Assembly (NCBI GenBank): GCA_052143835.1
Contig: JBKQRV010000093.1
Coordinates: 3,135 to 67,134 of the forward strand
DNA from: Alphaproteobacteria bacterium
Lineage (GTDB): Bacteria > Pseudomonadota > Alphaproteobacteria > JACZXZ01
Reading direction: 5' to 3'
Length of the DNA stretch: 64,000 bases
Position 1 is the stretch's first letter. Each line of letters opens with the position of its first letter. Both the position numbers and the translations under genes were made by a program. Shown here in pieces: positions 14,308 through 34,059 of the stretch. The notes beneath the pieces were generated by a model. The model searched no databases. It had not been told where the DNA came from and saw nothing but the letters and a program-made list of their open reading frames with translations.

Positions 14308-14311
14308 GGCG

Positions 14312-16462: not shown

Positions 16463-16484
16463 AAGGAGCGGGCCGGATTTGAGG

Positions 16485-17645
16485 ATGCGCCCTGCACAGT
16501 CGGGAGCCTCGACGGATCCGCTGGGGAAGGGAGCGGCGCGACGCGCTCTTTTCTCTCGTGTGCCGGGTGCGCGCGACCTCGTCATCGCCCTGCTGCTCGG
16601 CGCGGCCATCCTGCTGGGCTTCGACGCGCTCGGCGGAAGGATCGAGCTCCTGGGCCGCCTGCACCTCTGGCATGCGCAATGGCATCTCTGGGTAGAGCGG
16701 CATTTCCCGGCGTCCGCGGCCGGGATCGGGGCAGCCGCTTCGGCGCAACCCGTGGCGACGGATTTCCGTCTCAAGCGCGACCCGTTCCTTGTTTTTACCA
16801 AGGAGGACGGTCTTCGCTACCACCCCTTGATCGATTTCGCGGGCGCGCAGTTTCCCGGCGCGCGATCCTCCTACGAGAAGCGGGACTTCTTCGGGTTCCG
16901 CAACGACTTCAATGCCTATCTCAATCCGGGAAGCTATACCTATATCGTCATGACGGGGAACAGCGAGCTGGTGGGGGCGACCCACACGACGACGATCGCG
17001 CAGGACCTGGAATTCATCCTCAATACGCGGTCTGAGAGGAAATATCGCGTTCTCAATCTCGGCTTGAACAGCGCCACCTCCTCGAACGAGATAAATTTCT
17101 TCGTCAATTTGGCCTTCAATCTCCATCCTGAATTCGTCATCAGCCACTCATTCGTCACCGATATGCGCGATTGCGACAAGGAGGCGCCGGAATTCCAGAA
17201 GATCGGCATGTTTTTCCCGGACTTCGAAACGAAATGGATTAGGCTGGACGATGCTGCGAATTACGACCCAGAGGGTCCGGCGCGGTTTCGCGGCCCGCCG
17301 TCGGAAAAGTATCTACTCGAGGGCTTCGTGCGGGACTTGCAACGTTATCGGGCGATTGCCGCGGCGAGCGGCGCGCGCTTCATATTCGGGCTGCAAAAGT
17401 TCGATGAGAGCCGTGCCAAAGGGACGCCAGGCGAGGCAGACTGGGCGCGCGTCAAGCGCATGTACGAGAATTTCAAGGCCCTCCTCCGTGAACACCCATT
17501 GAAGATCGACATGATCGACTTCAATTCGGTCGCCGAAGTGCACCTCGCTTCCTCGACCGACCCGATGCATACGACGAACGCCAGCGCGCGGCGCATCGCC
17601 GAAATATACGCTGACCGCATTTTGGCCCTTGAAAGGCAACAATGA
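16485..17645 (+). CDS. AlgJ/AlgX/DltD-like periplasmic O-acyltransferase partner of MBOAT, paralog 1 (N-terminal membrane anchor)
   Basis: Single N-terminal TM helix; YTYIVMTGNSE block; C-terminal DPMHTTNASARRIAEIYAD (D..H catalytic-type motif). Sits immediately downstream of the MBOAT gene. Confidence 0.5.
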   Translation: MRPAQSGASTDPLGKGAARRALFSRVPGARDLVIALLLGAAILLGFDALGGRIELLGRLHLWHAQWHLWVERHFPASAAGIGAAASAQPVATDFRLKRDPFLVFTKEDGLRYHPLIDFAGAQFPGARSSYEKRDFFGFRNDFNAYLNPGSYTYIVMTGNSELVGATHTTTIAQDLEFILNTRSERKYRVLNLGLNSATSSNEINFFVNLAFNLHPEFVISHSFVTDMRDCDKEAPEFQKIGMFFPDFETKWIRLDDAANYDPEGPARFRGPPSEKYLLEGFVRDLQRYRAIAAASGARFIFGLQKFDESRAKGTPGEADWARVKRMYENFKALLREHPLKIDMIDFNSVAEVHLASSTDPMHTTNASARRIAEIYADRILALERQQ

Positions 17646-17790
17646 GCCGGGTCTGCGAGAACGTGCGCAACAGGCGGCAACCAGCGGAAGCCGAGGCCGG
17701 CCCTCGCGCGAGCGGAGAATTGCGGCGGGGCCGCGCGCGCGGCCGGCGGCCGGCGTCTCGACGAGGCACCTTGGTCGACAGGCATCGCCC

Positions 17791-19035
17791 ATGAATGGCA
17801 TCCGCACGATCGCGTCGGCGGCAAGGCTGCGGCGTGGATCGCTCGCGCGCATGCTGCGGAGAAAGCGGACGACCGCGCGGGAGTTCCTGCTCGCAGTGCT
17901 TCTTGCCGGAACGGTCCTCTTCGCTTTCGGCGCGGCGGGCGGCAAGATCGAGCTGTGGAACCGCTTGTATCTCTGGTATGCGTCAAAGGAGATCGCGGCA
18001 CAGGACCATGCGTTGCCTTTGCAGGCGAAGGGCGAGCGGACCGCCGCCTCCGAAGACGCCGCCGGCGAGTTTCGCCTCGACCACGATCCGTTCCTGACCT
18101 TCACCAAAAGGACCGGGTTCCGTCTCCATCCGTTGATCGATTTCGTGGGAGCGAACTTTAACGACGACAAGGACATTTTTATGGGGCAAACCACGGAGCA
18201 CTATTGGCAGGATCGGGATTTTTTCGGATTTCGCAATAATTTCAACGCCTATTTCGATCCCGGGGGCTATACCTACATCGTCATGACCGGCAATAGCGAG
18301 GCGGTCGGCTTCCGGCACGAGACGACGATCGCGCAGAATCTGCAAAGCATTCTGGAGGCGCGCACCGGGAAGCGATACCGCGTCTTGAATTTGGCGCTGA
18401 ACAGCGCGACCAGCGCGAACGAGATCAACTATTTCATCAATCTGGGGTTCGATCTTCATCCCGCGTTCGTCATCAGCCACGGGTTTGCAATGGACATGCT
18501 CTACGGCTATCAGGTGGCGCCCGAATTTCAGTCGATGGGACTATTCTATCACGCCTTGGCGAAAATCCAAGCCGAACGCATTCATGCGGGGAATTTCGAT
18601 CCGCGAGCGTTCGAGCTCGCCGAGCAATCGGTCTCGGAAGGGCATTTGCTCGAGGGCTGCATCCGCAATCTGGAGCGCTACCGCGCCATCGCCGAGGCAA
18701 GCGGCGCCAAGTTCATCCTGGGAATCCAGAAATTCGATGCCAGCCGCGTCAAGGGATTGCCAGGGCCGATCGGCGAGTCCGGCTATGATCGCGTCGCCCG
18801 CATGTACACGAAATTCAAGGAAATCCTTGCCCGCGGCCAATTGGACCTGGATGTCATCGATTTCAATACATATCCCGGTATCGAGCTGGCCGTCGCAACC
18901 GATGCGATACACACCACGGAGGCGAGCTCCCGGAGAATTGCGGAGATTTACGCCGATCACATACTGGCATTGGAAAAGAGCGGCGCGCGGGGGCTGCTCG
19001 GCACGCCTGCGAAGTCGAACGCCGAAGCCGAATGA
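17791..19035 (+). CDS. AlgJ/DltD-like periplasmic O-acyltransferase partner, paralog 2
   Basis: Colinear with 16485..17645: YTYIVMTGNSEAVG, DAIHTTEASSRRIAEIYADHILALE. Start taken at MNGIRT; the track ORF starts at 17629. Confidence 0.5.
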   Translation: MNGIRTIASAARLRRGSLARMLRRKRTTAREFLLAVLLAGTVLFAFGAAGGKIELWNRLYLWYASKEIAAQDHALPLQAKGERTAASEDAAGEFRLDHDPFLTFTKRTGFRLHPLIDFVGANFNDDKDIFMGQTTEHYWQDRDFFGFRNNFNAYFDPGGYTYIVMTGNSEAVGFRHETTIAQNLQSILEARTGKRYRVLNLALNSATSANEINYFINLGFDLHPAFVISHGFAMDMLYGYQVAPEFQSMGLFYHALAKIQAERIHAGNFDPRAFELAEQSVSEGHLLEGCIRNLERYRAIAEASGAKFILGIQKFDASRVKGLPGPIGESGYDRVARMYTKFKEILARGQLDLDVIDFNTYPGIELAVATDAIHTTEASSRRIAEIYADHILALEKSGARGLLGTPAKSNAEAE

Positions 19036-19536
19036 ACGAGGTCCGAGGTGGGCGAGGGGAATGCATGTTCGTTGGAGATCACCATGGAGGCGCCGCGACG
19101 GCGCTCTGTCTAACGTACGCTCGCTCGACGCCGCCGAGACGCGTGCCACCCAAGAATTCGCTCGAATTCGTACGTTCTGAACGACGCGCATGAGGTGCTT
19201 GTACCGGCGCACGGCAAGGCCGCGGCGGCTCATCCAGGGCGCGCTCGGCGTCATGCCTGCGTCGCCGCATTGGCCTATCCAGTGAGCCGCGATTGAGCAG
19301 CGCCTTGCGGTCGATCGCGAAACAGTGCATCCTGACATCCACGGCCGCAATCCAACGGAGCATGTCGGTCGACGAGCGCACTGTCGCGAAGTAGCGCTCG
19401 ATGCGAAGCCCCCATGGTCGACCCGCTTGCGTTGGCCTGCCATTCTTGGGCTCGAGGATCAAAGACCGACTTGGCAAGAGCCTTGGCATGCGCGTCGAGA
19501 AGCAGGACGGCTGAGGGATCAAGAGCAATATTGAGA

Positions 19537-21165
19537 ATGTCGCTGCGCTCTATCCCTTCGGCTGGTCTCCCGTACCGCACGCCGCCGCGCTCTTGGGCGC
19601 AGTGGGGTAGTCTCGCCGCCAAGCTCCCCCTGCTTTACCTCGCCGCGGCGGCGCTTACCGCAATTTACGTCTGTCAGGACGAGCACATCGCCGTGCACCC
19701 GGCATGGTACCTCGAGGATATGCCCGCGCTAACCTATGGCAACGGGAAATTCGGGGCGGAGGAACTCATCAAGCAGTTTCAGAATTTCGGCGGCTGGATC
19801 GAATTTCGTCCACGGTTCTTGGCGTACTTTATTTTGACCCTTGACCAATATCTACGATTCTTCCTCTATCCGTTTTGGCGAATTCCGACGAATTTTTCGA
19901 TAATGTACATACCCGAGTTGATTTCTGTTGTCTTGTTCTACAGAACAGTCTTCAATCTCACCAGTCGGAAAAACTCGGCTCAGGTCGGAACGGCCCTTTA
20001 CGTGACTTCGCTCGGTTTTACGTCGGGCTTGTCCTACATGTTCTTGGCCGGCAAACCGATGACAAACGTCATCTTCATCGTTATTGCCGCCATTGCCTCG
20101 GAAATGTGGAAAAAAGACGAGACCAAGCTCTTCATTGAGCACTCGCCGGGTCATCAGCTGATCATATTGCTGACGATGTTCATCGGCTTCAATTTCGACG
20201 AGGGGGCGTTTTTCGCCCCTCTTATCGCCCCCACCCTGTTTCCCTCGCTCTTTGTACCTCGTGATCCTCGGCGACGCCTGGGCGGGCGCACGGCGCTCAA
20301 TCTGCTTGTCTATTTTCTGCCGGTGTTGTGTTTTCTTTTGTTTGTTTTGGTCATCGTCCCGGTAATCACGCGAGCGACCTACGGCTACGACTTCGATTTC
20401 ATTTCGACGGTTCTGGGAACCCATGACCCGCGGATGCACGAGGCCGACTATGGGCTCGCGGGGCGCTTCACGCCGACGACCCTCTATTTGAACTTCCTCG
20501 CGTTGCTCGAACCCTCCTTCATTCCCTGGCAGCTTCGCCCCTACCTGGGTTGGGGCGGACAAAGCATCGTCGGGTCGCTTTATATCGGCACGGTCGTCAT
20601 CGTTGCGGTGTGGGTTGCGAGGCTGGGCTCGATATTCGACCGTCGCCTCGCGTTTCGCTCCCTCGTCCTGCTCGGGTTGTTCATTCTGTTTTCTGCGCTA
20701 TTGAACGGACGTCACGCCATCATCGTCAACGGCTACTACTATGGTTCGGCAATCGCCGTGTTCGTGAGCCTTTCGCTCGCACTTCTGGTGCGCGCCGCCT
20801 CGGCTCGCGGGATCAGGGCGCAGGGAGTGGCGCTGCTGCTCGTGGCTTGGCCGATCGCGATCCAAATCGATCACTCCGTGTACGCGACCTCGCAGAGCCA
20901 AATCGGATACAACGCGCTTGCCGCAGACGACTACTCCAAAAATTCGCCCCTCGGCTTCGTCAAGCTCGATCGCCAGCGCCCGGTTTCGGGACAGGAGCTG
21001 GATTGGATTTGGCGGATGTGGAAAGCGGGCAAGTTGCTCGAAATTGGTTCGAGGCGCATTTCGCCCGGTTCCCTCTATCTCGTGGCCGAGCTTTACAGGC
21101 TCGACCAATACAAGTACGGCCCGATCCCTTCCGGCTTGATGGGGGCAGAGACAATTCGGCGATGA
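19537..21165 (+). CDS. Family-A polytopic membrane protein (unknown function; candidate periplasmic glycan-assembly enzyme)
   Basis: More than 10 TM segments. Motif FRPRFLAYFILTLDQYLRFFLY..IPTNFSIMYIPELISVVLFYR is shared with five other ORFs in the window. Start taken at MSLRSIP; track start 19414. Confidence 0.55.
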   Translation: MSLRSIPSAGLPYRTPPRSWAQWGSLAAKLPLLYLAAAALTAIYVCQDEHIAVHPAWYLEDMPALTYGNGKFGAEELIKQFQNFGGWIEFRPRFLAYFILTLDQYLRFFLYPFWRIPTNFSIMYIPELISVVLFYRTVFNLTSRKNSAQVGTALYVTSLGFTSGLSYMFLAGKPMTNVIFIVIAAIASEMWKKDETKLFIEHSPGHQLIILLTMFIGFNFDEGAFFAPLIAPTLFPSLFVPRDPRRRLGGRTALNLLVYFLPVLCFLLFVLVIVPVITRATYGYDFDFISTVLGTHDPRMHEADYGLAGRFTPTTLYLNFLALLEPSFIPWQLRPYLGWGGQSIVGSLYIGTVVIVAVWVARLGSIFDRRLAFRSLVLLGLFILFSALLNGRHAIIVNGYYYGSAIAVFVSLSLALLVRAASARGIRAQGVALLLVAWPIAIQIDHSVYATSQSQIGYNALAADDYSKNSPLGFVKLDRQRPVSGQELDWIWRMWKAGKLLEIGSRRISPGSLYLVAELYRLDQYKYGPIPSGLMGAETIRR

Positions 21166-21315
21166 GGCCCCCACGCGCGAGCGTCCGCATGCCAAAGCTC
21201 GAGAGGTCCTGCGGTGATCGCTGAGCGCCTCGCCGAGCGGAGTAAGGGCGTCGGCGGCGGTGCGATATCCCGAGCGCCGCAGCGCAAGTAGGTCGGGGAC
21301 CGAGCGAAGACAGTG

Positions 21316-22938
21316 ATGAACAAAGCGAGATACAGGCAAAATCTTGTTCTTGCGATCGTCGCCCTGGCGGCGGGATTCGCCGCCGCCTGGCCCGCGCTCC
21401 ATCTTGTCCTGGTCGATGCGAATTTGGCATCGGTCTATCACGAGAACATCGGCTATCGCTTCGGCTGGGTATTGCGCTTGGTCGATGGTGCCCCCGGGGA
21501 CTATGTAAATCCGGGCCAGGGCGTCCTACTCTCCTTGGTGCAGGCGATCTACTACCTCGTCGGCAAAGCGCTCCATCTCGATCTCTTCGGGCAGATAGAT
21601 TTATTCGCGTTGCTGACCCTCGGCGTTCCCGCCGCCGGCATGCTCGTGTTGGCGCTGTGCGTTGCTTGGGATCAAAGGCTCCACCCCGGCGTGCGCGCGG
21701 CTCTCGTTGTGACGCCGCTCGTCATGGGCCTCGGCCATACGCATACCTTCGCATACGAGACGTACCCGGACTATCTCGCCTATACCAAGCCGCTTTTTCT
21801 CCTCTTCGGGTGGCGCTGGCTCAAGTACTGCGCGTGGAAGGAGATCGGTTCGCGCTCGATCGCGCTCGAGCTCGGGGTTTTGGCGGGTCTGTTGGGCGCC
21901 CTTAAGGTGGTGTACCTCATTTTCCCCGCAGGCCTGTTATTGGCGACGCTCTGCGCTAGCGCGCGAAGTGCGCCGCGCAGGGCGGCTCGCATGGGCGCAT
22001 ATGTGGGCGCGTCGGCGATTCTAACGATGGGGGGCCTGTTTATCGTTCACTACGGCGGGGACCTGGGCGAGATCGTTCGCTTCTTTCGGGACATGGTCAA
22101 CTTTACAAATCAATTTTCGGCGGCGCCTGCCATTTCCATCAGTCCCTTCGAGAGCTGGTCGACGCACAGCAATTCCGACCTCGCCTGGTTGACCATCGTG
22201 TTAGCCACCGTTCTTCTTTTCGGTTTCGGACGCCGCGGAAAAAACGGGGCGGTCGCTGCAGCAGCAATGGGAATTTTGGCGGCAATTGCCTTGGCTATTG
22301 CCTATTGGCGCGGAGGCGGAAGCAGTTATTTCGATGCTGTGGTGATCATGGCGATTTTGTGCGTTCTCGCGACCGCGACGTTCCGCAATCGGCGCCTGGT
22401 CGGGATCGCGTCTTTGGGACTCACGGGCGTATTCGTTCTCTGGCCGGCGGCCTGGGTCTGCACGCACTGGCAGAATTACGTCACCGAATACGATTTGCTG
22501 CCGAATCTCGTGACCGAGGGAGATTGGCAGCGCGATCTATTCCAGTGGGACGTCGCCCAGGGCCTGCCGGTCTACGTGCTGATGCCCTCAAGCAATTTCA
22601 TGCAAGGGACGATCGAAGACATGCTCATGCGCGGCTTGTCGAACTTCGAGCAGAGCTCGCTCGAGTCGAATAACAATTTGACGCGCGACGCCCTCTTCCC
22701 GCAGTTTCACTTCGGCCTTTGGAACATCGAGCTGCCGCCCCAGCCGCTGGTCCTTCTTTGGGTCACTCGCGACCGGCCCTTTCCTCTGGTCGATCAGGCC
22801 ATGCTCGACCAGGAAACGCAGTTGATCGCGCGCCTGCTCAAGGGACGCAAGCGGGAACGCTGCTACCATGTCACGCAGCCGCTCACGCGGGCCGTTATAT
22901 ATTCCTGCGTGGTGAGCGCACCCGAAAGCGAGCCATAG
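21316..22938 (+). CDS. Family-B polytopic membrane protein with C-terminal soluble domain (unknown function), partner of family A
   Basis: Paralog of 30012..31673 (shared HENIGYRFxWVLR, PGQGVLLSL, YVLMPS..QGTIEDM, CY(H/R)VTQ). Multi-TM N-terminal half. Confidence 0.55.
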   Translation: MNKARYRQNLVLAIVALAAGFAAAWPALHLVLVDANLASVYHENIGYRFGWVLRLVDGAPGDYVNPGQGVLLSLVQAIYYLVGKALHLDLFGQIDLFALLTLGVPAAGMLVLALCVAWDQRLHPGVRAALVVTPLVMGLGHTHTFAYETYPDYLAYTKPLFLLFGWRWLKYCAWKEIGSRSIALELGVLAGLLGALKVVYLIFPAGLLLATLCASARSAPRRAARMGAYVGASAILTMGGLFIVHYGGDLGEIVRFFRDMVNFTNQFSAAPAISISPFESWSTHSNSDLAWLTIVLATVLLFGFGRRGKNGAVAAAAMGILAAIALAIAYWRGGGSSYFDAVVIMAILCVLATATFRNRRLVGIASLGLTGVFVLWPAAWVCTHWQNYVTEYDLLPNLVTEGDWQRDLFQWDVAQGLPVYVLMPSSNFMQGTIEDMLMRGLSNFEQSSLESNNNLTRDALFPQFHFGLWNIELPPQPLVLLWVTRDRPFPLVDQAMLDQETQLIARLLKGRKRERCYHVTQPLTRAVIYSCVVSAPESEP

Positions 22939-23072
22939 TATCCGATTCGACGGATGAGCGGTGACCCATGCGAGGGCCGTCGACGTTGACCTTGCGGCGA
23001 CACCCCTCCGGCCATGGTCAGGGAAGGCACGACTCGCAGACCAGTCAGGCGACGGGCGGCCACGCCAGGCGG

Positions 23073-25571
23073 TCAATAAGGATTTTCGCGCGCTGCCACA
23101 AGCGCCTCGTCGATGAGGGCGGCGTCCTGCTCGAGGCACCGAGCCCGACTTCCGTATCCTCCGGTCCATTCCAGGCTCACGTCCGCCTTGCCCTCGAAGT
23201 AGAGTGCCAGAAGCGCTACGTCGGCGCGCAGTAGCGTCCCCGGCGGCCCGTTCCAGCGCGCCGTCCAGCAATTGGAGAAGCGAAAGGGAAGGACGATCAG
23301 GCTTGCATTACCGGCGGATCGTGCCGAAAGGTGGACGATCTGGCGTCGTGTCGCGATTTCGCTCGTCTCCACCGGCTGAAGCTCGCGGCTGGGCAGGCGC
23401 TCTAGGTCGGAATCCAAAAGCACCGCCTCAGCCTGCGGATCGAACTCCGGCCGCCTCATGCGGAGTAACGCCGCGGAAAGCGTCGCGGCCGCCTCCAGAC
23501 GGGTCACGCCATAGCCTCTGATATTGGCTTTGTAGAGCTCGGCCACCACATAATCCTTCCACTCGAAGGCGATCGGCGTCGACGCCAATGTGCCGCGGTT
23601 TTCCTCCCGCGTCACCACGTATCGCACGCCCGCCAACGCCAGCCGATCGGGTCGAAACTGATAAAGCGCGGTCCAGTTAGGCGAGAAGCGGACATGAGCG
23701 CCCTGCATCAGATATCGCGTCCAAAAAAGAAAGTACAAGTAGTCGTGGCTTTGCTCATAGGTAGACGCGACCGGGATACCGTTGAAAGGCAAGGAGGCAA
23801 GCATCATGCCGTTGCCGCCATCGCGAAAGTTGCGCTCGCGCTCGGCGATCATGTCGGCGCGGTCAGGCCGCTCGGCGTCAAATGGCGAGAGATACTCGGC
23901 CCGCCCGGCAAAAGCCCCGGACGAGCCCAGTCGATTCTTCAGGAAATCGACAATAGGGTTATCGCCCGCATTGACGCCGCGCCCGAAGTCGGTATCCCGG
24001 CAGCCGAGAAGCGTCACGTGGCCGCACCGACTCGGGTAGAGGAAATACGGCTTGGTTGCCCAAATCTGGGTTGTGAGCGCGGCAACGACGGCGATAAAGC
24101 CATAACAGACCGCGTCATTCCCTAGCGTGGCGAGATTTCGCCCCGGGCGGATCGGCTCCGATGACGGATGCCACGATGCGGGCAGGAACCGAGGCGCAAA
24201 CAATCTCAGCAGGTTGTAGACGAATGCCAGGGCTAGAGTCATCAGAACGACGAGAACGACAAGATCGCTCGCCGCCGAGCGCGGCGACTGGCCGCCGCTG
24301 TATTTGGCAAAGGTCGCGAACAGACCGTAGACGTTGAAAAACATATACGCGACGGCATATGACAGAATGACCGCTCCGGCACACCAGAGCACGAAGCGCC
24401 AACCGCCGTTGGCCACGAGTAATTTTGTGCCGGCACACAGTGCCACCGCGGCAGAAAACGCATAGAGTTGCGGGATAAACGTCTCGATGCGGTCGAGCGG
24501 CGGCAACGGTCGCAGGAGGTCACCGAAGATTCCCCAGGACGACAATAGGTAGAGAAGCTGGATACCCCCCACGATTGCAGCCAAGGCCAGGATCATCGAG
24601 CGCGCCATAGGCGGCACGCGGTCGACGACCAGCAGACTGGCAACCGCGCAGGCGGCAGTGAGGCGGCTAGCGATGGGTGGTGCAAACCAGTAGAGGGGCG
24701 GTCCCGACGCGAAGAAGTACGGACGGAGCTCGCGAGCAAACACAACGCGCGAGGAAACCCGCACAACAGCTTGCCACGACGCATAAGCGTCGAGTCCGGG
24801 AAGGAACAGGATCGTGCCGACCGCCGCCACCAGGCCGAAGAGATAGTAGCACGCCCACCGGCGCAGTGCTCTGCCGCCAACGATGGGAATAACGGCAGCG
24901 ATGCCGATCAGCACGCCGACGGCGATAAGGGAGCCGATCGGATAGGTCATTATCAAGAACAGGAGAGACAGGAACAACGCCGCGCTGTTAGGCGAGAAAA
25001 GTCGTTGCCTTAGTCGAATTCCACGCACATAGAAAGCGAGGCAAAGGGGAAGCAGGACGGTTTCGCTGGCATTAAAGGTCCCCGCAGAGTTCTGCGTTCC
25101 CCCGACACTCATCGACAAGCAGAACGACAGGAGTACGCACAAATAGCTCGTCGTGACGGCAAGCGTCCGTGCCCCGGGAAGGACCGCCGTCGCGAACAGG
25201 TAGGTGGCAAGCCAGCACGCCGCCAGGCGAAGCGCCATGGTCAACTGAAACGCGATCAGATAGTTTTGCGCGCTTTCGTGGCCGAACCTTACGAACAGCA
25301 TCGGCCAGGAAAACGGATCGAAGGCAATCGTCCAAAACAGGTTGGGCTGCCCCAAACCGTCGATCAGCTTAAAGCCAAAAAGGAGAGAGAGAGGCCGCTC
25401 CGTATTCAGGCGTTGGAGCAAAGACATGTAATTGAATGCGCCATCCTCGCCGTGCAGCGGGAATGAGAGCAGGTAGACGTAAAACCCGATCGCCAGAACG
25501 CTTATCAGGAGAAAATGCGCCCATAGCGGAAGTGTCGTCCCGTTATCGCGAAGGTGCGAGCTGCCGGGCAT
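23073..25571 (-). CDS. Large (about 830 aa) polytopic membrane protein with C-terminal extracytoplasmic domain, function unknown
   Basis: About 14 hydrophobic segments in the first 480 aa, then a ~350 aa soluble domain. ATG at 25571; the track TTG is at 25592. Confidence 0.5.
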   Translation of the reverse strand: MPGSSHLRDNGTTLPLWAHFLLISVLAIGFYVYLLSFPLHGEDGAFNYMSLLQRLNTERPLSLLFGFKLIDGLGQPNLFWTIAFDPFSWPMLFVRFGHESAQNYLIAFQLTMALRLAACWLATYLFATAVLPGARTLAVTTSYLCVLLSFCLSMSVGGTQNSAGTFNASETVLLPLCLAFYVRGIRLRQRLFSPNSAALFLSLLFLIMTYPIGSLIAVGVLIGIAAVIPIVGGRALRRWACYYLFGLVAAVGTILFLPGLDAYASWQAVVRVSSRVVFARELRPYFFASGPPLYWFAPPIASRLTAACAVASLLVVDRVPPMARSMILALAAIVGGIQLLYLLSSWGIFGDLLRPLPPLDRIETFIPQLYAFSAAVALCAGTKLLVANGGWRFVLWCAGAVILSYAVAYMFFNVYGLFATFAKYSGGQSPRSAASDLVVLVVLMTLALAFVYNLLRLFAPRFLPASWHPSSEPIRPGRNLATLGNDAVCYGFIAVVAALTTQIWATKPYFLYPSRCGHVTLLGCRDTDFGRGVNAGDNPIVDFLKNRLGSSGAFAGRAEYLSPFDAERPDRADMIAERERNFRDGGNGMMLASLPFNGIPVASTYEQSHDYLYFLFWTRYLMQGAHVRFSPNWTALYQFRPDRLALAGVRYVVTREENRGTLASTPIAFEWKDYVVAELYKANIRGYGVTRLEAAATLSAALLRMRRPEFDPQAEAVLLDSDLERLPSRELQPVETSEIATRRQIVHLSARSAGNASLIVLPFRFSNCWTARWNGPPGTLLRADVALLALYFEGKADVSLEWTGGYGSRARCLEQDAALIDEALVAARENPY

Positions 25572-25794
25572 CAACACGGTCCTCTTGGCCAACCGAGGGG
25601 GAAGAAGCTCGATCTTTGCAGGGTTAGCTGCAGGAATTCGCCGAGAAAATAAGATATGTTTTCATCGCGCGCCTTGTCATCATGAATTATACCGTCGGCT
25701 CGAGGCGTTCAGGACAGCGATAGGGCGCGATTGAGGGCTTGCCTTGGCAGCACTCCGAGGGATATCGGCATGATAAGCGGCGAAAATTAGAACG

Positions 25795-28209
25795 ATGCCC
25801 GGCATGACGCCCGAATCGCCGATCGAGCCTCGCCCGTACGGCCCCCGCTGCGGCGATCTCGCACTCATGACCGGGGTTCTTGCCGTGTGGCTCGTCGTGC
25901 ACGCCGCATTCTGGCGTCGTCTGATCCTTCACGATGCCTGGCTATACAATTTCCCTGCACTCTTCGGCGTCAGCAAGGCCATGGCTTGCGCCGGCATGCC
26001 GGATTGGCTGGGGACGGTTGACTCCGGGACCCCCATCAGCATCTATACCTCGGCCTTCACGCTGACCAATCCGCTCCGCCTTGCCTTGCTCTTCCTCATG
26101 AGCTGCCTCAAGCCGGGCGTCGTCGGAGCGGTCTATTTTCACAAGGTCCATATTCTCCTCCTCTATCTTTCGTTCGCGTTCGGGACGTTCGTGATGGGCC
26201 GCGTGCTGTTCCAGCGCGCGCTCTCCGCCATCTATCTTTTCGCGGCCGTCCTGTTCGCCGGCTTGTGCATGGAGACCATGCATTCCGACCAGACCGTCCT
26301 CATTCTCTTCTGGCTGCCCTGGATTGTGATTTGCGTCGCTCGATTCCACTACGAGCCGGCAGGGCCCCGGGCCCATTGGTATCTGAATGCCGCCGTCCTC
26401 TTTGTCGGACTCCAGGCGCTCGATGAGACGCCGCACTTCACGGCCTTCGCCGCCGGGCTGGCGCTGGTGCTCTACGCGGCACTCGAGCCCCAAGCCCTCC
26501 TCGCCGGCGTGCGTCTTCATTGGAAGCGGCTTTGGCCGGCCGTACTGGTTCTGGCACTTACGGCCGCTCACTTGCACTATCTCCTGGGCGAGCTCGGCCA
26601 CTATGCGTCCTCGCTGCGCTATGCCGTGTCCTTCCACGCGGAATTGCGGCTCGATCTGGCCAATCTGAGCGAGACCGGTTTCGCTCAGCCTAGCGCTTTC
26701 CTGGGATCCTTCCTGCCGCTCGCCTTCACGCGGACGTTCGACTCGCTCGCGGACGCCCTTCACGCCTGGTACGCCGGGCATGTGCTCGCGACCTTGTCGC
26801 CCGAGCGCCGCTTCTTCGTTTACCAGCTCGACGCGGTCATGTTCTTCGTCGGCATCATTCCCATGGTGCTGGCGGCGGCGTTTCTGTTGCAACGGGGTGC
26901 GGCTCGGCGCCGCGTGGGCTGGGGGCTTTTTGCGCTTCTGAGCCTTCTGGCGGCATTGCAGCAAAGTCGGCTCTATCTGCTGATCTTCGAGCTGCCGTTC
27001 TTCAATATCTTCCGCTCGTACCTTCTTCTCGCACTCTTCGGCATCTTTGCGGTGCTGGTGATGAGCGGATATGGCATGGATGCACTCCTCACGCTCGAGC
27101 CCGAACCGCGCCGACGCCTGGCCGGGCGGGCGCTCGCCGTCACCGCAGCGCTGGCAGGGGTTGCCGCCCTCCTGTTCCTTTGGCTCTTCACCTTGCCCGT
27201 GCCCACGACGGCCCTTCCTGCGGCTCGCTTCACGTTGCCGGAGCCGAACGTCCGGTTGCGTTACGCGGTACTCGTCGATGTCGGCATGTTGGCCTCCGGC
27301 CTCGGGGTCCTTGCCTGGGCGGCCTATGGCGCTGCCGACGTGCGCCAGGCGATGTCCGTCGCCATCCTCGTGCTGGCGCTTTCCCAGGCGGCCTACCAGG
27401 GCTATGTCTACCGCATTCTTGCCGTCCCGGTCGGCGAGGCCGTGGCGCGCTTCGGACTCGACGAGATCGACCGTAGGCCGATCCCGCAGGCCGCGGCCGA
27501 CGATCCTCGCGCGCTCACCCGCAAGCTCTGCACGACGTTCGCGCAATGCTATCTCTCGACGCGCGACACGGCGTCGCTTCGCCTCGATCACGAGGGGACG
27601 TTCTTCCGCAGCCTGGGGGAGGCCCTGTTCCAGCCCGGCCTCGAACGCCCCGTGGTCGAGGCGCTCACCGCGATCGGCCGTCCCATTTTCTGGAGCAGCC
27701 GACGCGCGGCACCCTATGCCGATGACGCCGAGCTGACGCGCGAGCTCAACGACCACGCCGCAGATATCAGCGAGAGGCTCGGCGAGCTGGTCTATGTCCG
27801 GCGCAAGGACCTCGATGCGCTCGGGCGGCCGCCGGACGGGGCGGCGGACCCGGTGCTGACTGACCTCGCCCGCGGCGTGGACTGGACGCATCTTTCCTAT
27901 CGCGCGGAAACGCCGTTCTATCTCAACGCCGCCATCGCCGATTTGCGCCATTGGCGGATCACTTTGGGCGGCAAGTTGGTGAGCGCCGTGCGCGGCAATT
28001 TCGGGGGGCTGGCTGCAGCTGTACCCGCTGGTGCTGGCGTGATCGAGCTCAGCTACGTCAATCGGGCAAGCCAACTCTTCTTCGCGACCCGACTTCTCAT
28101 GGGGCTCTTGGGACTCTTTGCCATGGCTTGGCTTATGCGCACGGGGACCTGCCGCACAAAGGCGGCGGGACCCGACAAAATTTCCGGACCTTCCGCGCGG
28201 CACGGCTGA
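25795..28209 (+). CDS. YfhO-like large membrane protein (putative GT-C-type glycosyltransferase), paralog 1
   Basis: About 800 aa; ~13 TM; ~250 aa soluble domain; a final C-terminal TM (LFFATRLLMGLLGLFAMAWL), the architecture typical of YfhO. Paralog of 58563..60857. Confidence 0.5.
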   Translation: MPGMTPESPIEPRPYGPRCGDLALMTGVLAVWLVVHAAFWRRLILHDAWLYNFPALFGVSKAMACAGMPDWLGTVDSGTPISIYTSAFTLTNPLRLALLFLMSCLKPGVVGAVYFHKVHILLLYLSFAFGTFVMGRVLFQRALSAIYLFAAVLFAGLCMETMHSDQTVLILFWLPWIVICVARFHYEPAGPRAHWYLNAAVLFVGLQALDETPHFTAFAAGLALVLYAALEPQALLAGVRLHWKRLWPAVLVLALTAAHLHYLLGELGHYASSLRYAVSFHAELRLDLANLSETGFAQPSAFLGSFLPLAFTRTFDSLADALHAWYAGHVLATLSPERRFFVYQLDAVMFFVGIIPMVLAAAFLLQRGAARRRVGWGLFALLSLLAALQQSRLYLLIFELPFFNIFRSYLLLALFGIFAVLVMSGYGMDALLTLEPEPRRRLAGRALAVTAALAGVAALLFLWLFTLPVPTTALPAARFTLPEPNVRLRYAVLVDVGMLASGLGVLAWAAYGAADVRQAMSVAILVLALSQAAYQGYVYRILAVPVGEAVARFGLDEIDRRPIPQAAADDPRALTRKLCTTFAQCYLSTRDTASLRLDHEGTFFRSLGEALFQPGLERPVVEALTAIGRPIFWSSRRAAPYADDAELTRELNDHAADISERLGELVYVRRKDLDALGRPPDGAADPVLTDLARGVDWTHLSYRAETPFYLNAAIADLRHWRITLGGKLVSAVRGNFGGLAAAVPAGAGVIELSYVNRASQLFFATRLLMGLLGLFAMAWLMRTGTCRTKAAGPDKISGPSARHG

Positions 28210-28377
28210 GGTGCGGTCGCGGAGCGCTCAATGCGCGGGCGACGTTGTAATCGCCGAAGGCTCACGCGCAAGCCTATATAGGCACGGGCGTCCCTGCTGC
28301 TTCTTGTTCCCCGGCACGCATCCGGCTAGAAGTAGCGACCAACCGCGCTCTTTGGCGCGGACGTCGGAGTGTCTTGG

Positions 28378-30015
28378 ATGACCGCTGGGGATGAACAAGG
28401 GGAAGGGGTAGGGGAAAGACGGCGAACGGGCGTTCGCCGGTGCTGCCGCGCGCTCATCGAGAGGCTGCCCATCCTCTACCTCGCCGCCGCGGCCATCGCC
28501 GTATTCTACTTGTGCGAGGACGAGCACGTGGCGGTGCACATCGGCTGGTACAGGGACAACATGCCGTTCCTGACCTACGGCGACGGAAACTTCGGGAGCG
28601 AGGAGTTCCTCAAGCAATTCCGCAACTTCGGCGGCTGGATCGAGTTTCGCGCGCGCTTTCTCACGTACTTCTTCCTGACGCTCGATCACTACTTGAGGTT
28701 CTTCCTTTACCAATACGTGCGGATTCCAAAAGGTCTCTCGATCCTATACGTGCCGGAGCTCGTCTCGGTCTTTCTGTTCTACAAGCTGATCAGGAACATC
28801 ACGGGCCACAGGATATCGTCGTTGTTGGGGACCGCTTTCTACGTCACCTCGATCGGGTTCACCTCGGGCCTCAGCCTGATGTTCATGCCGGGGAAGCCGA
28901 TGACGAACGTCATCTTCATCATCGTCGCCTATCTCTGCTCGGAAATGTGGAGAAGAGATCGCGACAGGCTGTTCGTCGAGCAGCCTATCGGCTTGCAGAT
29001 CGCCGTGCTGGCGACGATGTTCTTCGGCTTTAATTTCGACGAAGGCGATTTTTTCGCGCCCGTGATCGCGCCGCTGCTCTTCCCCTCGCTTTTCTGGCGG
29101 CGTGGTCGCCTGCCGGGAAACACCGCTCGAAACTGCCGCAACATTCTCGTCTATATTCTGCCGGTGCCGTGCTTCCTGTTCTTCGTGCTGGTCATCGTCC
29201 CGCACATTACGCGGACGTACTACGGCTATGACTTCGACTTCATTTCGACCGTTCTGGGTACGCACGACCCGCGCATGCATGAAGCCGATTATGGGCTCGT
29301 CGGCCGCTTCACCCTCGCGACGCTCTATTCGAATTTCCTGGCGCAGATGGGGACCGTCGTCGTTCCTTGGTGGCTCGACTCCGGCCTGGCCGTCGGAGCA
29401 CGGGGCGTCGTCAAGGAGCTCTCGCTGGCGATGCTTGTCGCGGGCGCTGTCGTGCTACCGGTGCTGACGCGCTATGCCGGAGCAAGGCTCGCCTACCGCT
29501 CGCTGCTGCTGCTCGGGCTGAATATTCTGTTCTCGGCACTTCTCAACGGCCGCCACGGCGTCGTCGTGGACGGGTACTATTACGGCTCGGCCATCGCGGT
29601 GTTCACGAGCCTATCGCTGGCCCTTGCCTGTCATGCGGCGTGTCTTCATCGTCCGACCGTTCGGCGGACCGCGATCGTCCTCGCCGCCTTGCCGATCTTC
29701 GTTCAGATCGGCAATGCCGTGAAATTCGAACGCGACAATCGGAGGCTCTACGCCACGCTTGTGCTCGAGTTTTATACCAAGAGCCCTTCCGACATTCGGC
29801 CGCTCTTCGCCGCACTCGATCCGCACCGCGGCGTCTCGACCGAGGAGCTCGATTGGATCTGGCGCCTTTGGAAGGAAGGAAAATGGGACGAGCTGCGCAC
29901 GGCCACCATCTCGCCGGGCGCCGTCTATCTCGTCGCGGAGCTTCGCCGCATGGACCAGCTTAAGGGGGGCCGTCTTCCCTCCGGGCTCCTCGGAGCCGAA
30001 ACAATCGCACGATGA
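28378..30015 (+). CDS. Family-A polytopic membrane protein, paralog (A')
   Basis: FRARFLTYFFLTLDHYLRFFLY..LSILYVPELVSVFLFYK and a YGYDFDFISTVLGTHDPRMHEADYGL block near-identical to 19537..21165. GGAG lies 9 nt before the ATG at 28378. Confidence 0.55.
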   Translation: MTAGDEQGEGVGERRRTGVRRCCRALIERLPILYLAAAAIAVFYLCEDEHVAVHIGWYRDNMPFLTYGDGNFGSEEFLKQFRNFGGWIEFRARFLTYFFLTLDHYLRFFLYQYVRIPKGLSILYVPELVSVFLFYKLIRNITGHRISSLLGTAFYVTSIGFTSGLSLMFMPGKPMTNVIFIIVAYLCSEMWRRDRDRLFVEQPIGLQIAVLATMFFGFNFDEGDFFAPVIAPLLFPSLFWRRGRLPGNTARNCRNILVYILPVPCFLFFVLVIVPHITRTYYGYDFDFISTVLGTHDPRMHEADYGLVGRFTLATLYSNFLAQMGTVVVPWWLDSGLAVGARGVVKELSLAMLVAGAVVLPVLTRYAGARLAYRSLLLLGLNILFSALLNGRHGVVVDGYYYGSAIAVFTSLSLALACHAACLHRPTVRRTAIVLAALPIFVQIGNAVKFERDNRRLYATLVLEFYTKSPSDIRPLFAALDPHRGVSTEELDWIWRLWKEGKWDELRTATISPGAVYLVAELRRMDQLKGGRLPSGLLGAETIAR

Positions 30016-31673
30016 CGGCACTCCAGCCAGAGGCGACAGGCCATGGCGCCTCGCCGCGCAGCTTCCAACTCGCGCTCTTCGTAATCGCCTTGCTCTCGGG
30101 CCTCGCCGCGGCGTGGCCACCGCTTCATCTCGTCATCGTGAACGCCAATCTCGCCACCTATTTTCACGAGAACATCGGCTATCGCTTCTTCTGGGTGCTG
30201 CGCGCGATCGACGGCGCGCCGGGTGACTTCGTGCATCCGGGGCAGGGCGTGCTCCTCTCGCTCATCCAGGCGATCTACTATCTGGCGGGCAAGGCGCTGG
30301 GCCTCGATCTGTGGGGCCGGATCAGTCTCTTCGGCCACCTTACTCTCGGCGTCCCCACCGTCGCGACGGCGCTGCTGGGCTTGGCCATAGCGCTCGACCG
30401 CAGGCTCGAGCCCGGCGTTCGTGCGGCCCTCGTGACGGCACCGCTCGCGATGGGCCTCGGCCACACGCACATCTTTTCCTACAGCCTGTATCCGGACTAT
30501 ACCGCCTATGCCAAGCTGTTGTTTCTCCTCTTCGGCTGGCGCTGGTTGGCGCTCGGGGGATGGAATGGTATCGAATCGGCGCGAGCGGCCTCTGAGCTCG
30601 GCATCCTGGGAGGGCTTCTCGGCGCGCTAAAGCTGAACTATGCGTTCTTTCCGGCCGGTCTCCTGCTGGCTTCCCTCGGCGTGACCGCGGCACTTCGCCC
30701 GCGCATGGCCCTTGGCCTCGCGGCGCTCGTTGCCGCGGTCGCTGCGGCGACGATGGGGGGGCTGTTTCTCCTGCACTATGGCGGCAGCGTCCAGCCCATC
30801 TTGCGCTTTTTCGTCGTGCTCTCAAGCTTTTCGCGCTCGCTTTCCGGCGCACCCGGCCTTTCGATCGATCCCTTCGCAAGCTGGTCCACCAACAACTACT
30901 CGGACCTTGCTTGGCGTGCGGCCCTTATGGCCGCACTCTGCGCGTTGATGATCGGACAGCGGCGGGCAAAGGCTCTGTTCTTTGCCCTCGTCTTGGCGGC
31001 CATAGGTGCCATCGCCGTGATGCTGGCCTATTGGCGCGGCGGCGGGACGAGCTACTTCGACGCCGTCGTCATGCTCAGCATCCTCTCTGTTCTTGCCGCC
31101 GCGACCTTCGCCGGCCGGCGCGCGCGGAATTACGCATCATTGGTGCTTGCGGGTATCTTCGTGGCATGGCCGGCCGCTTGGGTCGCCTCCAACTGGCAGA
31201 TTTACGAAACGGACCATGGGCTGCTGCCGGACCTCGAACTTGCGGGGGATTGGCAGCGCGGGCTTTACAATTGGAACCGGGCGCAGCACTTGCCCGTCTA
31301 TGTGCTGATGCCGTCGAATAGCTTTCCGCAGGGGACCATCGAGGACATGATGCTGCGCGGCATGACCAATTTCAGCGATGATTGGGGCGTCGCGAACCAG
31401 AACCCGACCCGTGAAGCGCTGTTCCCCGAGTTTCACATCGTTTCCTACAACATGTTCGACATGTTTCGGCCGCCCCCGCGCTATGTCTTCATGTGGGTGA
31501 CAGGCAAGCGCCCCTTTCCACTGGTCGACCAGGCGACGCTCGATCGCCAAAACAAGGAAGTGGATCGCCTGTTGAGCGGACGGCGCCGTGAGGCGTGCTA
31601 TCGCGTCACGCAGGCAATCACGGGAGCCGAGATCATATCCTGCGTTGTGAGCTTGGCTGACGATCGGCCATAG
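30012..31673 (+). CDS. Family-B polytopic membrane protein, paralog (B')
   Basis: Colinear with 21316..22938; the ATG overlaps the stop of A' (ATGA). Confidence 0.55.
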   Translation: MTALQPEATGHGASPRSFQLALFVIALLSGLAAAWPPLHLVIVNANLATYFHENIGYRFFWVLRAIDGAPGDFVHPGQGVLLSLIQAIYYLAGKALGLDLWGRISLFGHLTLGVPTVATALLGLAIALDRRLEPGVRAALVTAPLAMGLGHTHIFSYSLYPDYTAYAKLLFLLFGWRWLALGGWNGIESARAASELGILGGLLGALKLNYAFFPAGLLLASLGVTAALRPRMALGLAALVAAVAAATMGGLFLLHYGGSVQPILRFFVVLSSFSRSLSGAPGLSIDPFASWSTNNYSDLAWRAALMAALCALMIGQRRAKALFFALVLAAIGAIAVMLAYWRGGGTSYFDAVVMLSILSVLAAATFAGRRARNYASLVLAGIFVAWPAAWVASNWQIYETDHGLLPDLELAGDWQRGLYNWNRAQHLPVYVLMPSNSFPQGTIEDMMLRGMTNFSDDWGVANQNPTREALFPEFHIVSYNMFDMFRPPPRYVFMWVTGKRPFPLVDQATLDRQNKEVDRLLSGRRREACYRVTQAITGAEIISCVVSLADDRP

Positions 31674-31779
31674 CATCGCGTCGACCGGCGCGGTGGGCTT
31701 TTCATTTCGTAGCGCCGGCGGCTCGGTCGATATAGTGTCGCTGAGGCTGCGCTCCGCTTGCGCGGGAGACCCCGCTGGA

Positions 31780-34059
31780 ATGACAGATTCGCCGATCATG
31801 GTCGCCGTCGCCCTTGCCTGGATCACCGGTCACTTTGGCCTTTATGTGGCATGCAGGCTTCGTGGCGGCAGCCTTGGCAAGTGGCAGGACGTGCTGAGCT
31901 TCCACCTCGTCTCGGCGGCGGGACTTGGGGCGGTCATTGCCGGCCTGAGCGTGCTCGCGTGGAGCGCCAATGCGGCGATGGCGGCAGCAACAGCGCTGGC
32001 GCTGCACGGCGTCTACAGCTTGGCAATGCTGGAGAGTTGGCCGCTGCTCGAGGCGAGCCTCGCGCTCGCAGGGGCGGAGAGGACGGCGTACCGCGGCGCG
32101 GTCGGCGAGATCACGTTTCTCGACCGCATCGATGGGCTGATGCGCCGATCCGCGCGGCTGCTCGCGATTGCCGCCTTCATCGCCCTCTTCGCAGCAGTCG
32201 CTTGGTATTTGCTGCTGCGCCCGATCTACGCCGCAAGCTTCATCGAATATTATATGAAATATCTGCCCTTCCTGACCGACCACGGGTTGCGGGGCATCCT
32301 CGATCTCGCGGCCCTGGGCGATCCGCGCCCACGCCTCCTTCCCTTGCTCGGTGCCGTCGTCAACGTCGATCTTCGGCGGGCCTTGCTGCTGCTCGGCCCG
32401 ATGCATCCATCGTTCGGCATCGCTTGGCTGATCTATCCCGCAGCTCTCGTAGCTCTCTACTGGGCCGTTTATCTCTTGTGCGGGCGGAGGACGCCGGCGG
32501 TGATCGCGACCCTGCTCTATGCGGCCTCGCCCGGGCACCTCGACATCCTGGTAGACTATTACATACCAGCCAAGCCGCTCGTAAATTTGTTCTTTATCAC
32601 GGCGTTGGTGGGTGTGGGGTTGAGCGAGCCGCACGCCTTGCTGAACAGGCGGCCGCGCCCTTTACTCGGTACGAGCATCCTGTTTCTCTCGGCGCTCGGC
32701 GGCGTGCTTTCGGACGAGACGGCGGTCTTCCTGATCTCAACGGCCGGCATCCTCGCGCTGCCGCGCCTACTCGACCGCAGCGCCGGAGCTGTCCGGAGGC
32801 TGGCGGCGCCGGCCGCACTTGTCGCGGCCCTCTTGATCTATGTCTCGATCGGCTTCTTCGCGTTGCCGGCGATCGCCGAGCGCCACGGGTATGCGGTCGT
32901 CCCCCTCGGCGTCGTCATGTTGCGCGGCGTCTATGCGGCGATGTTCGGCACGGAGCAGCCCCTCGGCGCATTTCTGCACGGCATCCACTCCGGCAGCTTG
33001 CTCGAGACCATCGTGTCGGCGCACACGGTGCTGGGTCGCGCCGTCGTCGGAGATTGGACGTACAATCGCCCGCCGCGACCCTTTTGGGACGCAAGTGCCC
33101 GCGAGTACGGCCAACAGCTCGCGGTCCTCATCGCGTTCGCGGCTCTCCTGTTGTCGGTCAGTCGCGCGCAACGCCGGCTCCTCTGGTCCCTCGTGCTGGC
33201 GTTCGCGTTGTTCGTATACGGGCAGGCGGTGATGATCTATCCGCTTGCTCCCTATTTGGTCGAAGTGAACTATTACGCCGGCCTCTCGTCCATCTTCGTG
33301 GCCCTGCTCGTCGGCCTGCTGCTCGGCGATTTTGCCGAGCGCAAGGGCTGCCTGCCCCTCGCGGGGCTCGCGGCCGCGTGGCTCGCCTTCACCAGCTTCT
33401 CCAACTTCCTCGCCACCGCGCAGCGGCACCCCGGTTTCACCGATGCGCCGTTGACCTGGACGGACCTGCGCGAGGCCCGCGCGCGCGCGCTGGCCGGACA
33501 GCTTCTCGATATGCCGGGAGCGGCCGGCTCTCCCGACGGGCTCCCGCATCGCGGCCGCAAGTACCTTTACGCGCTCGAGGTTGCGATGGCGCGGCAGCAT
33601 GCACGGGGCGAGCGCGTGGACATCCAACCGCTCCAACCGCTCGCGAGCGCTCCCCTTTATCGGAGTCTTCACCTGGAAACCCTGTTCGACACCAAGATTC
33701 CGCGTTTGGCACAGCCCGGTCCCGCCACCCTTGCGGAGGCAAGGGGCAGCGCCGGCGCTACGGCCGCGGCACTCGGCGTGGCGTCGCTACAAGGCCGCCG
33801 TCTCCGCGGCAGCACCGCCGAGTGGAACGTCGACATCACGATTGCGGAGAACGGCGTTGTCCGCGGCACGGTATGGCGCCCCGGCCTCATGCGGCTCTGG
33901 GGCATGACCGGCCGTCTCGCGCGGGGGACGGAAGGCGACTGCCTCGTCTTCGATCAGGCCCCGGCACTTTGTATGGCTACGCTCGTCACGCTCAAGGATG
34001 GCCTCTCCGCGTACGACGCCGGCGGCCGGTGGGTCCTCGCCTTCCACTACGTGCGGTGA
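31780..34059 (+). CDS. Family-A-related large (about 760 aa) polytopic membrane protein with long C-terminal domain
   Basis: PRLLPLLGAVVNVDLRRALLLLGP..PSFGIAWLIYPAALVALYW matches the family-A motif. The ATG at 31780 is in frame with the GTG-initiated track ORF 31693. Confidence 0.5.
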   Translation: MTDSPIMVAVALAWITGHFGLYVACRLRGGSLGKWQDVLSFHLVSAAGLGAVIAGLSVLAWSANAAMAAATALALHGVYSLAMLESWPLLEASLALAGAERTAYRGAVGEITFLDRIDGLMRRSARLLAIAAFIALFAAVAWYLLLRPIYAASFIEYYMKYLPFLTDHGLRGILDLAALGDPRPRLLPLLGAVVNVDLRRALLLLGPMHPSFGIAWLIYPAALVALYWAVYLLCGRRTPAVIATLLYAASPGHLDILVDYYIPAKPLVNLFFITALVGVGLSEPHALLNRRPRPLLGTSILFLSALGGVLSDETAVFLISTAGILALPRLLDRSAGAVRRLAAPAALVAALLIYVSIGFFALPAIAERHGYAVVPLGVVMLRGVYAAMFGTEQPLGAFLHGIHSGSLLETIVSAHTVLGRAVVGDWTYNRPPRPFWDASAREYGQQLAVLIAFAALLLSVSRAQRRLLWSLVLAFALFVYGQAVMIYPLAPYLVEVNYYAGLSSIFVALLVGLLLGDFAERKGCLPLAGLAAAWLAFTSFSNFLATAQRHPGFTDAPLTWTDLREARARALAGQLLDMPGAAGSPDGLPHRGRKYLYALEVAMARQHARGERVDIQPLQPLASAPLYRSLHLETLFDTKIPRLAQPGPATLAEARGSAGATAAALGVASLQGRRLRGSTAEWNVDITIAENGVVRGTVWRPGLMRLWGMTGRLARGTEGDCLVFDQAPALCMATLVTLKDGLSAYDAGGRWVLAFHYVR

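Follow-up and report, generated by a model that had tools for sequence, protein, structure and literature searches.

An anciently duplicated two-gene membrane module with a predicted GT-C-like fold in an alphaproteobacterial surface-sugar locus

A 64,000-nucleotide stretch of contig JBKQRV010000093.1 (the window), from a soil alphaproteobacterium that has not been cultured, carries an extensive surface-sugar locus. It contains, twice, a gene for a membrane protein of family A followed by a gene for a membrane protein of family B (A1-B1 and A2-B2, Table 1). Sequence comparison confirmed that this repeated two-gene module is real and that its two membrane protein families are mutually unrelated. 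The A+B pair was copied as a unit long ago and then inherited together. We judge it probable, at about 0.65, that the two pairs are periplasmic, lipid-phosphate-sugar-dependent GT-C glycosyltransferases that diversify a surface glycan, and that they were duplicated long ago and kept by selection.

An earlier note, made from the DNA letters alone, had described family A followed by family B at two places. The open reading frames (ORFs) lie at the positions it gave, and the coordinates agree with ortholog starts: the A1 start is backed by an identical database protein (P0008), and B1 starts at the ATG at 21316, as in its orthologs P0018 and P0019. A1 and A2 are 59% identical over 525 aa and B1 and B2 are 57% identical over 535 aa (BLASTP, both E=0). 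Collinearity between the copies is extended, as shown by blastn, with 67.8% DNA identity between 19623-20784 and 28464-29625, and 65.8% between 21371-22917 and 30097-31652. The near-identical stretch that had been pointed out is a 76-nt string present exactly at 20383, with a paralog at 29224 that has 10 mismatches (87% identity). The ATGA overlap of the A2 stop and B2 start is at 30012-30015, as described, and both protein blocks that had been quoted are conserved between the paralogs in the BLASTP alignments. Identity is minimal at residues ~331-360 and ~421-480 for the A paralogs and at residues ~301-330 for the B paralogs. As hhalign found no relation between A and B, an internal A/B duplication is ruled out as the origin of the module.

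Both pairs occupy the same positions in two other genomes (L001; L005/L006). Locus L001 is ~85% identical to the window in DNA sequence, while L005, L006 and L012, from different JGI samples, are ~90% identical; L002 is an independent assembly from this same organism and matches window 9537-31164 at 99.99% identity. The ortholog of each copy in L001 and L005/L006 is 78-95% identical to that in the window at the protein level. Between the paralogs, non-synonymous divergence (dN) is 0.357 for A1/A2 and 0.370 for B1/B2. Together with the collinearity of the copies, this equal divergence of A and B shows that the pair was copied as a unit. Synonymous divergence (dS) is saturated for both genes, at 1.4-1.7, and L001 and L005 already carry both copies, and thus the duplication is old. 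Ortholog dN/dS is 0.18-0.30 over all four genes (0.19-0.21 for A1 and 0.18-0.29 for B1), which indicates purifying selection, so that all four genes are maintained and the pair is a functional one. The proposal of a segmental duplication of a functional pair is therefore supported in part: the pair was duplicated, but long ago rather than recently. Over seven A-B pairs, the A-A and B-B distance matrices correlate with r=0.92 (Mantel 34/5040).

What kind of proteins do these genes encode? AlphaFold (AF2) models built from alignments were helical bundles for both A2 (pLDDT 79, pTM 0.83) and B2 (pLDDT 82, pTM 0.86). When these models were compared with the PDB by Foldseek, every match with a probability of at least ~0.84 was a GT-C glycosyltransferase, for both models, and similarity to this superfamily in three dimensions was thus found for each. 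The A2 matches comprised STT3A/B, ArnT, PglB, PimE, AglB, AftA/B, DPY19 and EmbB, and the B2 matches AglB, EmbA/B/C, ArnT, ALG3 and Pmt4. GT-C matches had TM-scores of 0.28-0.48 and probabilities of 0.84-1.0, compared to TM-scores of 0.08-0.19 and probabilities of at most 0.57 for transporters. GT-C_A enzymes have as a hallmark two juxtamembrane helices, JM1 and JM2, in the first periplasmic loop, with a catalytic Asp or Glu near JM1 (PMC12041525). The A2 model has two short helices (58-69 and 77-84) in its first loop, between transmembrane (TM) helices TM1 and TM2, which may correspond to JM1 and JM2. As modelled, then, A and B resemble GT-C enzymes at the fold level, with modest scores.

The sequences of A1, A2, B1 and B2 matched no Pfam or NCBIfam model, those of the curated GT-C families (PMT, PMT_2, STT3, YfhO and others) included, and A and B therefore lie outside every curated GT-C sequence family. 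Neither family had a sequence match in the PDB, whether single sequences or profiles were used, and the hhalign probability of the A and B profiles against the PMT_2 protein of a related locus (L003) was <1%. In a set of 56 diverse A sequences, no Pfam or NCBIfam model matched the membrane core apart from a single DUF2079 at E 0.0025. Hydropathy gave 8-12 segments in the A and B proteins, which are polytopic, in line with the 8-13 TM helices and cytoplasmic N-terminus of GT-C superfamily members.

Like the short helices after TM1 in the A2 model, the following features do not depend on the fold search. For family A, the bias of Lys and Arg in the loops alternates cleanly and predicts 11 TM helices, with the N-terminus in and the C-terminus out. 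Only R96, K176, D224 and E225 are invariant in the 56 diverse A sequences. The charge bias places these residues, together with the best-conserved A loop (YGYDFDFISTVLGTHDPRMHEADYGL; YGYDFDF...), on the periplasmic side. Accessory domains occur in some A members: F5/8-type-C in 9/56 and CBM_4_9 in 1/56. The C-terminal alpha/beta domain of family B has ~130 residues and holds an invariant GDWQR and a conserved GTIEDM block. In the first loop of B, two residues are candidate catalytic acids: D72, which is invariant, and E53, which is conserved in 90% or more.

Close relatives are few, with 11 clusters for A and 16 for B among 5.8 billion, all from metagenomes or from metagenome-assembled genomes (MAGs) of Alphaproteobacteria. 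A profile search for further B relatives returned the same 16 proteins again. Of 185,579 species-representative genomes, 1 has family B, a scan of JGI metagenomes added 7 loci, and plasmids gave no tblastn match. The A-family profile reaches further, to 458 representatives in 1.84 billion proteins. Sources of this A superfamily include Alphaproteobacteria and Phycisphaerae MAGs, and its members owe their protein names to accessory domains alone.

Table 1. Positions of the duplicated module and of other features discussed in the text (window coordinates).
Feature	Position	Strand	Description
A1	19537-21165	+	542-aa polytopic membrane protein, family A, predicted GT-C fold
B1	21316-22938	+	540-aa polytopic membrane protein, family B, C-terminal alpha/beta domain, predicted GT-C fold
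A2	28378-30015	+	545-aa family A protein, modelled with 11 TM helices, predicted GT-C fold
B2	30012-31673	+	553-aa family B protein; start codon overlaps A2 stop (ATGA)
A3	49647-51227	-	Paralog in family A, sharing 31% identity with A1 and A2
A4	40598-42253	-	Distant family A paralog, 26-30% identical
A5	48038-49525	+	Distant paralog in family A, sharing 24% identity with A1/A2 and 41% with A4
D	31780-34059	+	~759-aa distant A-superfamily member with N- and C-terminal extensions, always 3' of B2-type genes
E	23073-25592	-	839-aa polytopic membrane protein between both pairs
C	25795-28209	+	804-aa polytopic membrane protein, 40% identical to C2
C2	58227-60857		876 aa; weak YfhO (GT-C) match
Desaturase-like	34222-35259	+	Membrane di-iron desaturase/hydroxylase-like, PF00487; nearest NCBIfam GntB hydroxylase, below cut-off
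GT2 (PgfS/ArnC type)	3642-4784	-	Candidate donor-making enzyme, PF00535
MprF-flippase-like	6028-7056	+	Candidate lipid-linked-sugar flippase; PF03706 3e-47, TIGR00374 above cut-off
Leader of A2	28300-28377	+	Conserved, ~75 nt; core 28311-28340 = CCGGCACGCATCCGGCTAGAAGTAGCGACC

Family A had been described as present in two copies, which does not hold: the window has four further genes of its superfamily, giving six in all (A1, A2, A3, A4, A5 and D). D was recognised as a member by profile comparison alone (hhalign against the A profile, 99.4%, E 4.8e-21), and retains the invariant R, K and DE. Its start, the ATG at 31780 with GGGAGA upstream, agrees with ortholog starts. In the 64 kb there are ~13 large membrane proteins without a family assignment, and the six members of the A superfamily are among them. 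hhalign found no relation of the A and B profiles to C or to E; E also has no Pfam or NCBIfam match and no paralog in the window. C and C2 each have a ~240-residue, periplasmic-sized domain ahead of the last TM helix.

The window also contains candidates for making and moving lipid-linked sugars. Four of its five GT2 genes are nearest to polyprenyl-phosphate or dolichyl-phosphate sugar synthases. The one of PgfS/ArnC type has full-length similarity to PgfS (2e-67) and ArnC (3e-43) in NCBIfam, below the equivalog cut-offs, and the three others are nearest to AglJ, Dol-P-hexose (dolichyl-phosphate-hexose) transferase or PpgS. Together with the flippase-like and GT-C-like genes, the GT2 genes make up a possible three-component set, in which the genes are 13-25 kb apart and the GT2 scores fall below cut-off.

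Gene order is labile across the related loci. In the window and L002 it is MBOAT-X1-X2-A1-B1-E(-)-C-A2-B2-D-desaturase-like, where (-) marks the reverse strand. L005 and L006 have the same order with E internally deleted; the deletion has 5-bp GCGCC microhomology and removes window 23107-25438. L001 has C-A1-B1-A2-B2-D, so that C is upstream of A1 there and between both pairs in the window, and E is absent. L004 has a single A-B pair, then D. In L003 a single A stands without B, D is present twice, and E and C survive as remnants. The desaturase-like gene 3' of D is kept in L001, L003-L007 and L011, and in L007 it is near a distant B. That distant B, like the one in L008, is flanked by an MprF-flippase-like gene and a small generic GT2 gene; in L009 and L010 a distant B adjoins a small GT2 gene. 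None of these distant B genes has a neighbouring A. As the small GT2 genes match the N-terminal halves of generic GT2 proteins alone, they do not identify the donor, and we rejected them as a clue to it.

B genes also vary internally. The L005 B2 (10001-11662) is a mosaic: its residues ~161-420 (window 30500-31250) have 62% protein identity and 59-68% DNA identity to the window, whereas its flanks and A2 are 89-98% identical; in protein, the flanks are 89-95% and A2 is 95% identical. Among known homologs, none was found from which the divergent segment could have come. In L002, B1 is frameshifted by a 1-bp insertion (GAGAGC to GAGAAGC; window 22154, L002 12618). The insertion is a sequencing error or else a variant in the population, one whose pair 1 no longer has B.

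As periplasmic GT-C glycosyltransferases, the A and B proteins would act at the end of a simple route. GT2 enzymes would load sugars onto polyprenyl phosphate on the cytoplasmic side, a flippase would move the polyprenyl-phosphate sugars to the periplasmic leaflet, and A, B and the other A-type proteins would then add these sugars, at the periplasmic face, to a growing or finished envelope glycan. The A-B unit, probably with its leader, was duplicated long ago, and selection has kept both pairs in a fast-rearranging surface-glycan locus. Most probably they were retained because they came to differ in donor, acceptor or linkage. The earlier suggestion that they provide two specificities of one assembly step is plausible. 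The analysis shows the duplication and its age, the purifying selection, the joint inheritance of A and B and their likeness to GT-C enzymes at the fold level, whereas the enzymatic activity, the type of donor, the periplasmic active site and the divergent specificity between the pairs are inferred.

Several observations weigh against this assignment. Foldseek gave weak E-values, 3.6e-3 and 2.6e-3 at best, and TM-scores that are all <0.5, and neither sequence nor profile searches linked A or B to a GT-C family. The GT2 matches are all below the curated equivalog cut-offs. For B, the topology from charge bias is inconsistent beyond the basic N-terminus of B1. For A, the acidic residues E52-D53-E54 after TM1 are not invariant family-wide, and the invariant pair D224-E225 is in a later periplasmic loop, so that the canonical catalytic Asp at the tip of JM1 is not established.

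Among known systems, the module would work most like the ArnT- and Rgt-type transferases and the three-component periplasmic systems. A and B are similar in size (~550 aa) to ArnT/PMT_2 proteins (GT83), and ArnT gave the top TM-score for B (0.47/0.48) and the second-best match for A. The window has an ArnC/PgfS-like GT2, and in L003 a PMT_2 gene replaces MBOAT-X1-X2. However, A and B have no sequence or profile similarity to PMT_2, and their conserved residues differ. In Rhizobium, the paralogs RgtA-D, which are grouped with the ArnT/PMT_2-type GT-C enzymes, add galacturonic acid to lipopolysaccharide, so that several paralogous GT-C genes serve one envelope glycan.

In three-component systems (GtrABC, CsbB/GtcA/YfhO and GT136), a GT-C enzyme works with a flippase and with the synthase of a lipid-phosphate sugar, and there are candidates for all three here. 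ORF15/14/12 of Citrobacter youngae carry out three-component extracytoplasmic glycosylation with a GT-C enzyme of family GT136. This enzyme has ~11 TM helices, TM1 is followed by a small helical domain, and a carbohydrate-binding module lies at the C-terminus (PMC11127046). Family A is likewise predicted to have ~11 TM helices and a helical segment after TM1, and some of its members have carbohydrate-binding domains. The arrangement in L007, where flippase-like and GT2 genes flank the distant B, is a further likeness. Unlike these systems, which have one, the locus has a large set of GT-C-like genes: six of A type, both B genes and probably C and C2. Its flippase candidate is MprF-like rather than of GtrA or MATE type, and A and B are mutually unrelated in sequence.

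In having several GT-C genes per locus, the module resembles the mycobacterial Emb/Aft systems. EmbC-EmbA-EmbB are likewise adjacent, duplication-derived GT-C genes, Emb and Aft proteins are among the fold matches, and in mycobacteria several GT-C enzymes together make one polymer from polyprenyl-phosphate sugars, as may be the case here. On the other hand, Emb proteins have ~1,100 aa and are mutually homologous, whereas A and B have ~550 aa and are unrelated; the host here is an alphaproteobacterium, and no AcpM-like partner was seen. STT3, PglB and AglB were the top Foldseek matches for both models, and like them B has a C-terminal alpha/beta domain after its last TM helix. Against a close relation, TM-scores normalised by target length were 0.21-0.38, ArnT fits B better, sequence and profile searches found no relation, and no WWDYG-type motif was identified.

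Could the repeat instead have arisen recently by segmental duplication, or through faulty assembly, and be functionally meaningless? The repeat itself, and nothing further, speaks for this. It is refuted, with a probability next to nil, by a DNA identity of only 66-68% with saturated dS, by orthologs of each copy in independent assemblies from other samples, and by purifying selection on each copy. That A and B are transporters or flippases of glycan precursors, and not enzymes, would suit their 10-12 predicted TM helices and the lack of a catalytic domain recognised by sequence. We consider it highly improbable, as transporter folds scored far below GT-C folds (TM-scores up to 0.19 against 0.28-0.48, probabilities up to 0.57 against 0.84-1.0), the invariant charged residues of A cluster on a single membrane face, and the carbohydrate-binding domain fusions indicate an extracytoplasmic glycan substrate. 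A third idea is that A, B or both use glycans linked to undecaprenyl diphosphate (Und-PP), as Wzy-type polymerases or WaaL-type ligases, in which case the duplication would provide two polymerisation or ligation linkages. Wzy genes, too, are often polytopic, without a family assignment and located in polysaccharide loci, and Und-PP-glycan enzyme families have a distant structural core in common with GT-C (PMC10920833). This is nonetheless very unlikely. No WaaL, SEDS or polymerase structure was among the best 50 PDB matches of either model, classical GT-C enzymes that use lipid-phosphate sugars or lipid-linked oligosaccharides dominate the fold matches, six A-type genes per locus exceed the need for a polymerase or ligase, and the window has GT2 genes like polyprenyl-phosphate monosaccharide synthases.

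A different proposal refines the periplasmic GT-C assignment rather than replacing it: A and B could be subunits of one heterodimeric GT-C enzyme, in the style of EmbA-EmbB or Pmt1-Pmt2, with the two pairs as alternative holoenzymes. A is directly 5' of B in every close locus carrying the pair, the ATGA overlap of pair 2 is kept in L001 and L005, the divergences of A and B match, and Emb and Pmt, which are known dimers, are among the fold matches. The pairing is not obligatory, however, as L003 has A without B, the distant B genes (L007, L009) have no adjacent A, and with 458 representatives the A superfamily far exceeds the 16 clusters of B. Furthermore, A1 and B1 are separated by a spacer of 63-162 bp, linkage alone explains the correlated A and B distances, and in L005 the middle third of B2 was swapped while A2 is still 95% identical. 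We therefore regard the heterodimer as possible but unlikely. More doubtful still is a wider version, in which A and B are two new GT-C families that act as obligate A-B heterocomplexes and, joined by D, C, E and the remaining A-type genes, form a largely periplasmic polyprenyl-phosphate-sugar assembly line. This would be like mycobacterial arabinan synthesis but in a Gram-negative alphaproteobacterium, with the pairs installing different linkages.

The duplicated unit may have extended beyond the two genes. The leader upstream of A2 (Table 1) is kept in L001, L005 and L006, and in L001 it is found upstream of A1 as well as A2 (L001 6491-6583 and 9930-10000). The first ~30 residues of the L001 A1 are A2-like. 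The ancestral duplicated unit probably also included the ~75-nt leader and, to judge from this comparison, the 5' end of A1 is replaced in the window lineage. The leader had no Rfam match. As it folds no better than shuffled sequences (z = -1.4), we dropped the idea that it is an RNA element.

The 5' part of A1 had also been noted as less GC-rich than its paralog, as a hint of a different age or origin. The difference is there, with 46.9% GC at 19800-20200 and 54.4% in the paralogous stretch, but both copies dip at that place, so that the local dip comes mostly from the encoded protein. GC at third codon positions (GC3) is 0.72 for A1 and 0.75 for B1, and 0.80 for A2 and 0.79 for B2. This modest shift is common to neighbouring genes (0.72-0.75 for A1, B1 and E; 0.79-0.81 for C, A2, B2 and D), and the suggestion of a different origin was not borne out.

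The rest of the window is rich in sugar-modifying genes, including genes for amino-sugar enzymes (two DegT aminotransferases and a PIG-L), thiamine pyrophosphate (TPP)-dependent E1 alpha/beta genes, a GDP-mannose-dehydratase-like (4,6-dehydratase) gene, a DltB-like MBOAT gene, two Acyl_transf_3 genes and many methyltransferase genes. Block 9964-14968 holds the E1 alpha/beta genes, the two DegT genes (40% identical to one another) and the PIG-L deacetylase gene, which suggests that an unusual sugar, perhaps a branched or diamino one, is made. L002, L003 and L004 also have this block; the fetched part of L009 has E1 and PIG-L, with no DegT seen. X1 (16479-17645) and X2 (17629-19035) are tandem genes, 51% identical, directly 3' of the DltB-like MBOAT gene (15011-16462). 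Each encodes one N-terminal TM helix and ~340 soluble residues, an architecture reminiscent of DltD or AlgJ, which are MBOAT partners, with no Pfam match. A 448-aa ORF (43965-45311) has a GC3 below that of its neighbours and is, by eye, a candidate zinc-ribbon sugar C-methyltransferase-like protein; at least 9 other genes in the window have methyltransferase domains, two of them fused to GT2 domains. The ORFs at the edges of the window (35-1675 and 62118-63998, the latter running off the 3' end) encode large polytopic proteins with no Pfam match. A terminator-like hairpin at 31674-31705, between the B2 stop and D, ranked top in a promoter and terminator scan of 15000-34900, in which the count of sites was not above chance. 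The hairpin is kept in the closest relative, L005, alone. No tRNA or Rfam family was found within the window.

The duplication by itself is ordinary. Across the related loci, genes have been lost or relocated, one is a mosaic in its middle and one has a frameshift variant, which provides a clear example of how a surface-glycan locus diversifies. If the assignment is true, A and B would be two previously unrecognised GT-C sequence families within a known superfamily, whose enzymes are easily overlooked in sequence annotation. The same kind of evidence, together with an activity assay, founded GT136 as a CAZy family in 2024 (PMC11127046). Six of the ~13 large unassigned membrane proteins belong to the A superfamily and are accompanied by putative synthases of lipid-phosphate sugars, which suggests that in some environmental Alphaproteobacteria an envelope glycan is built or decorated mainly in the periplasm.

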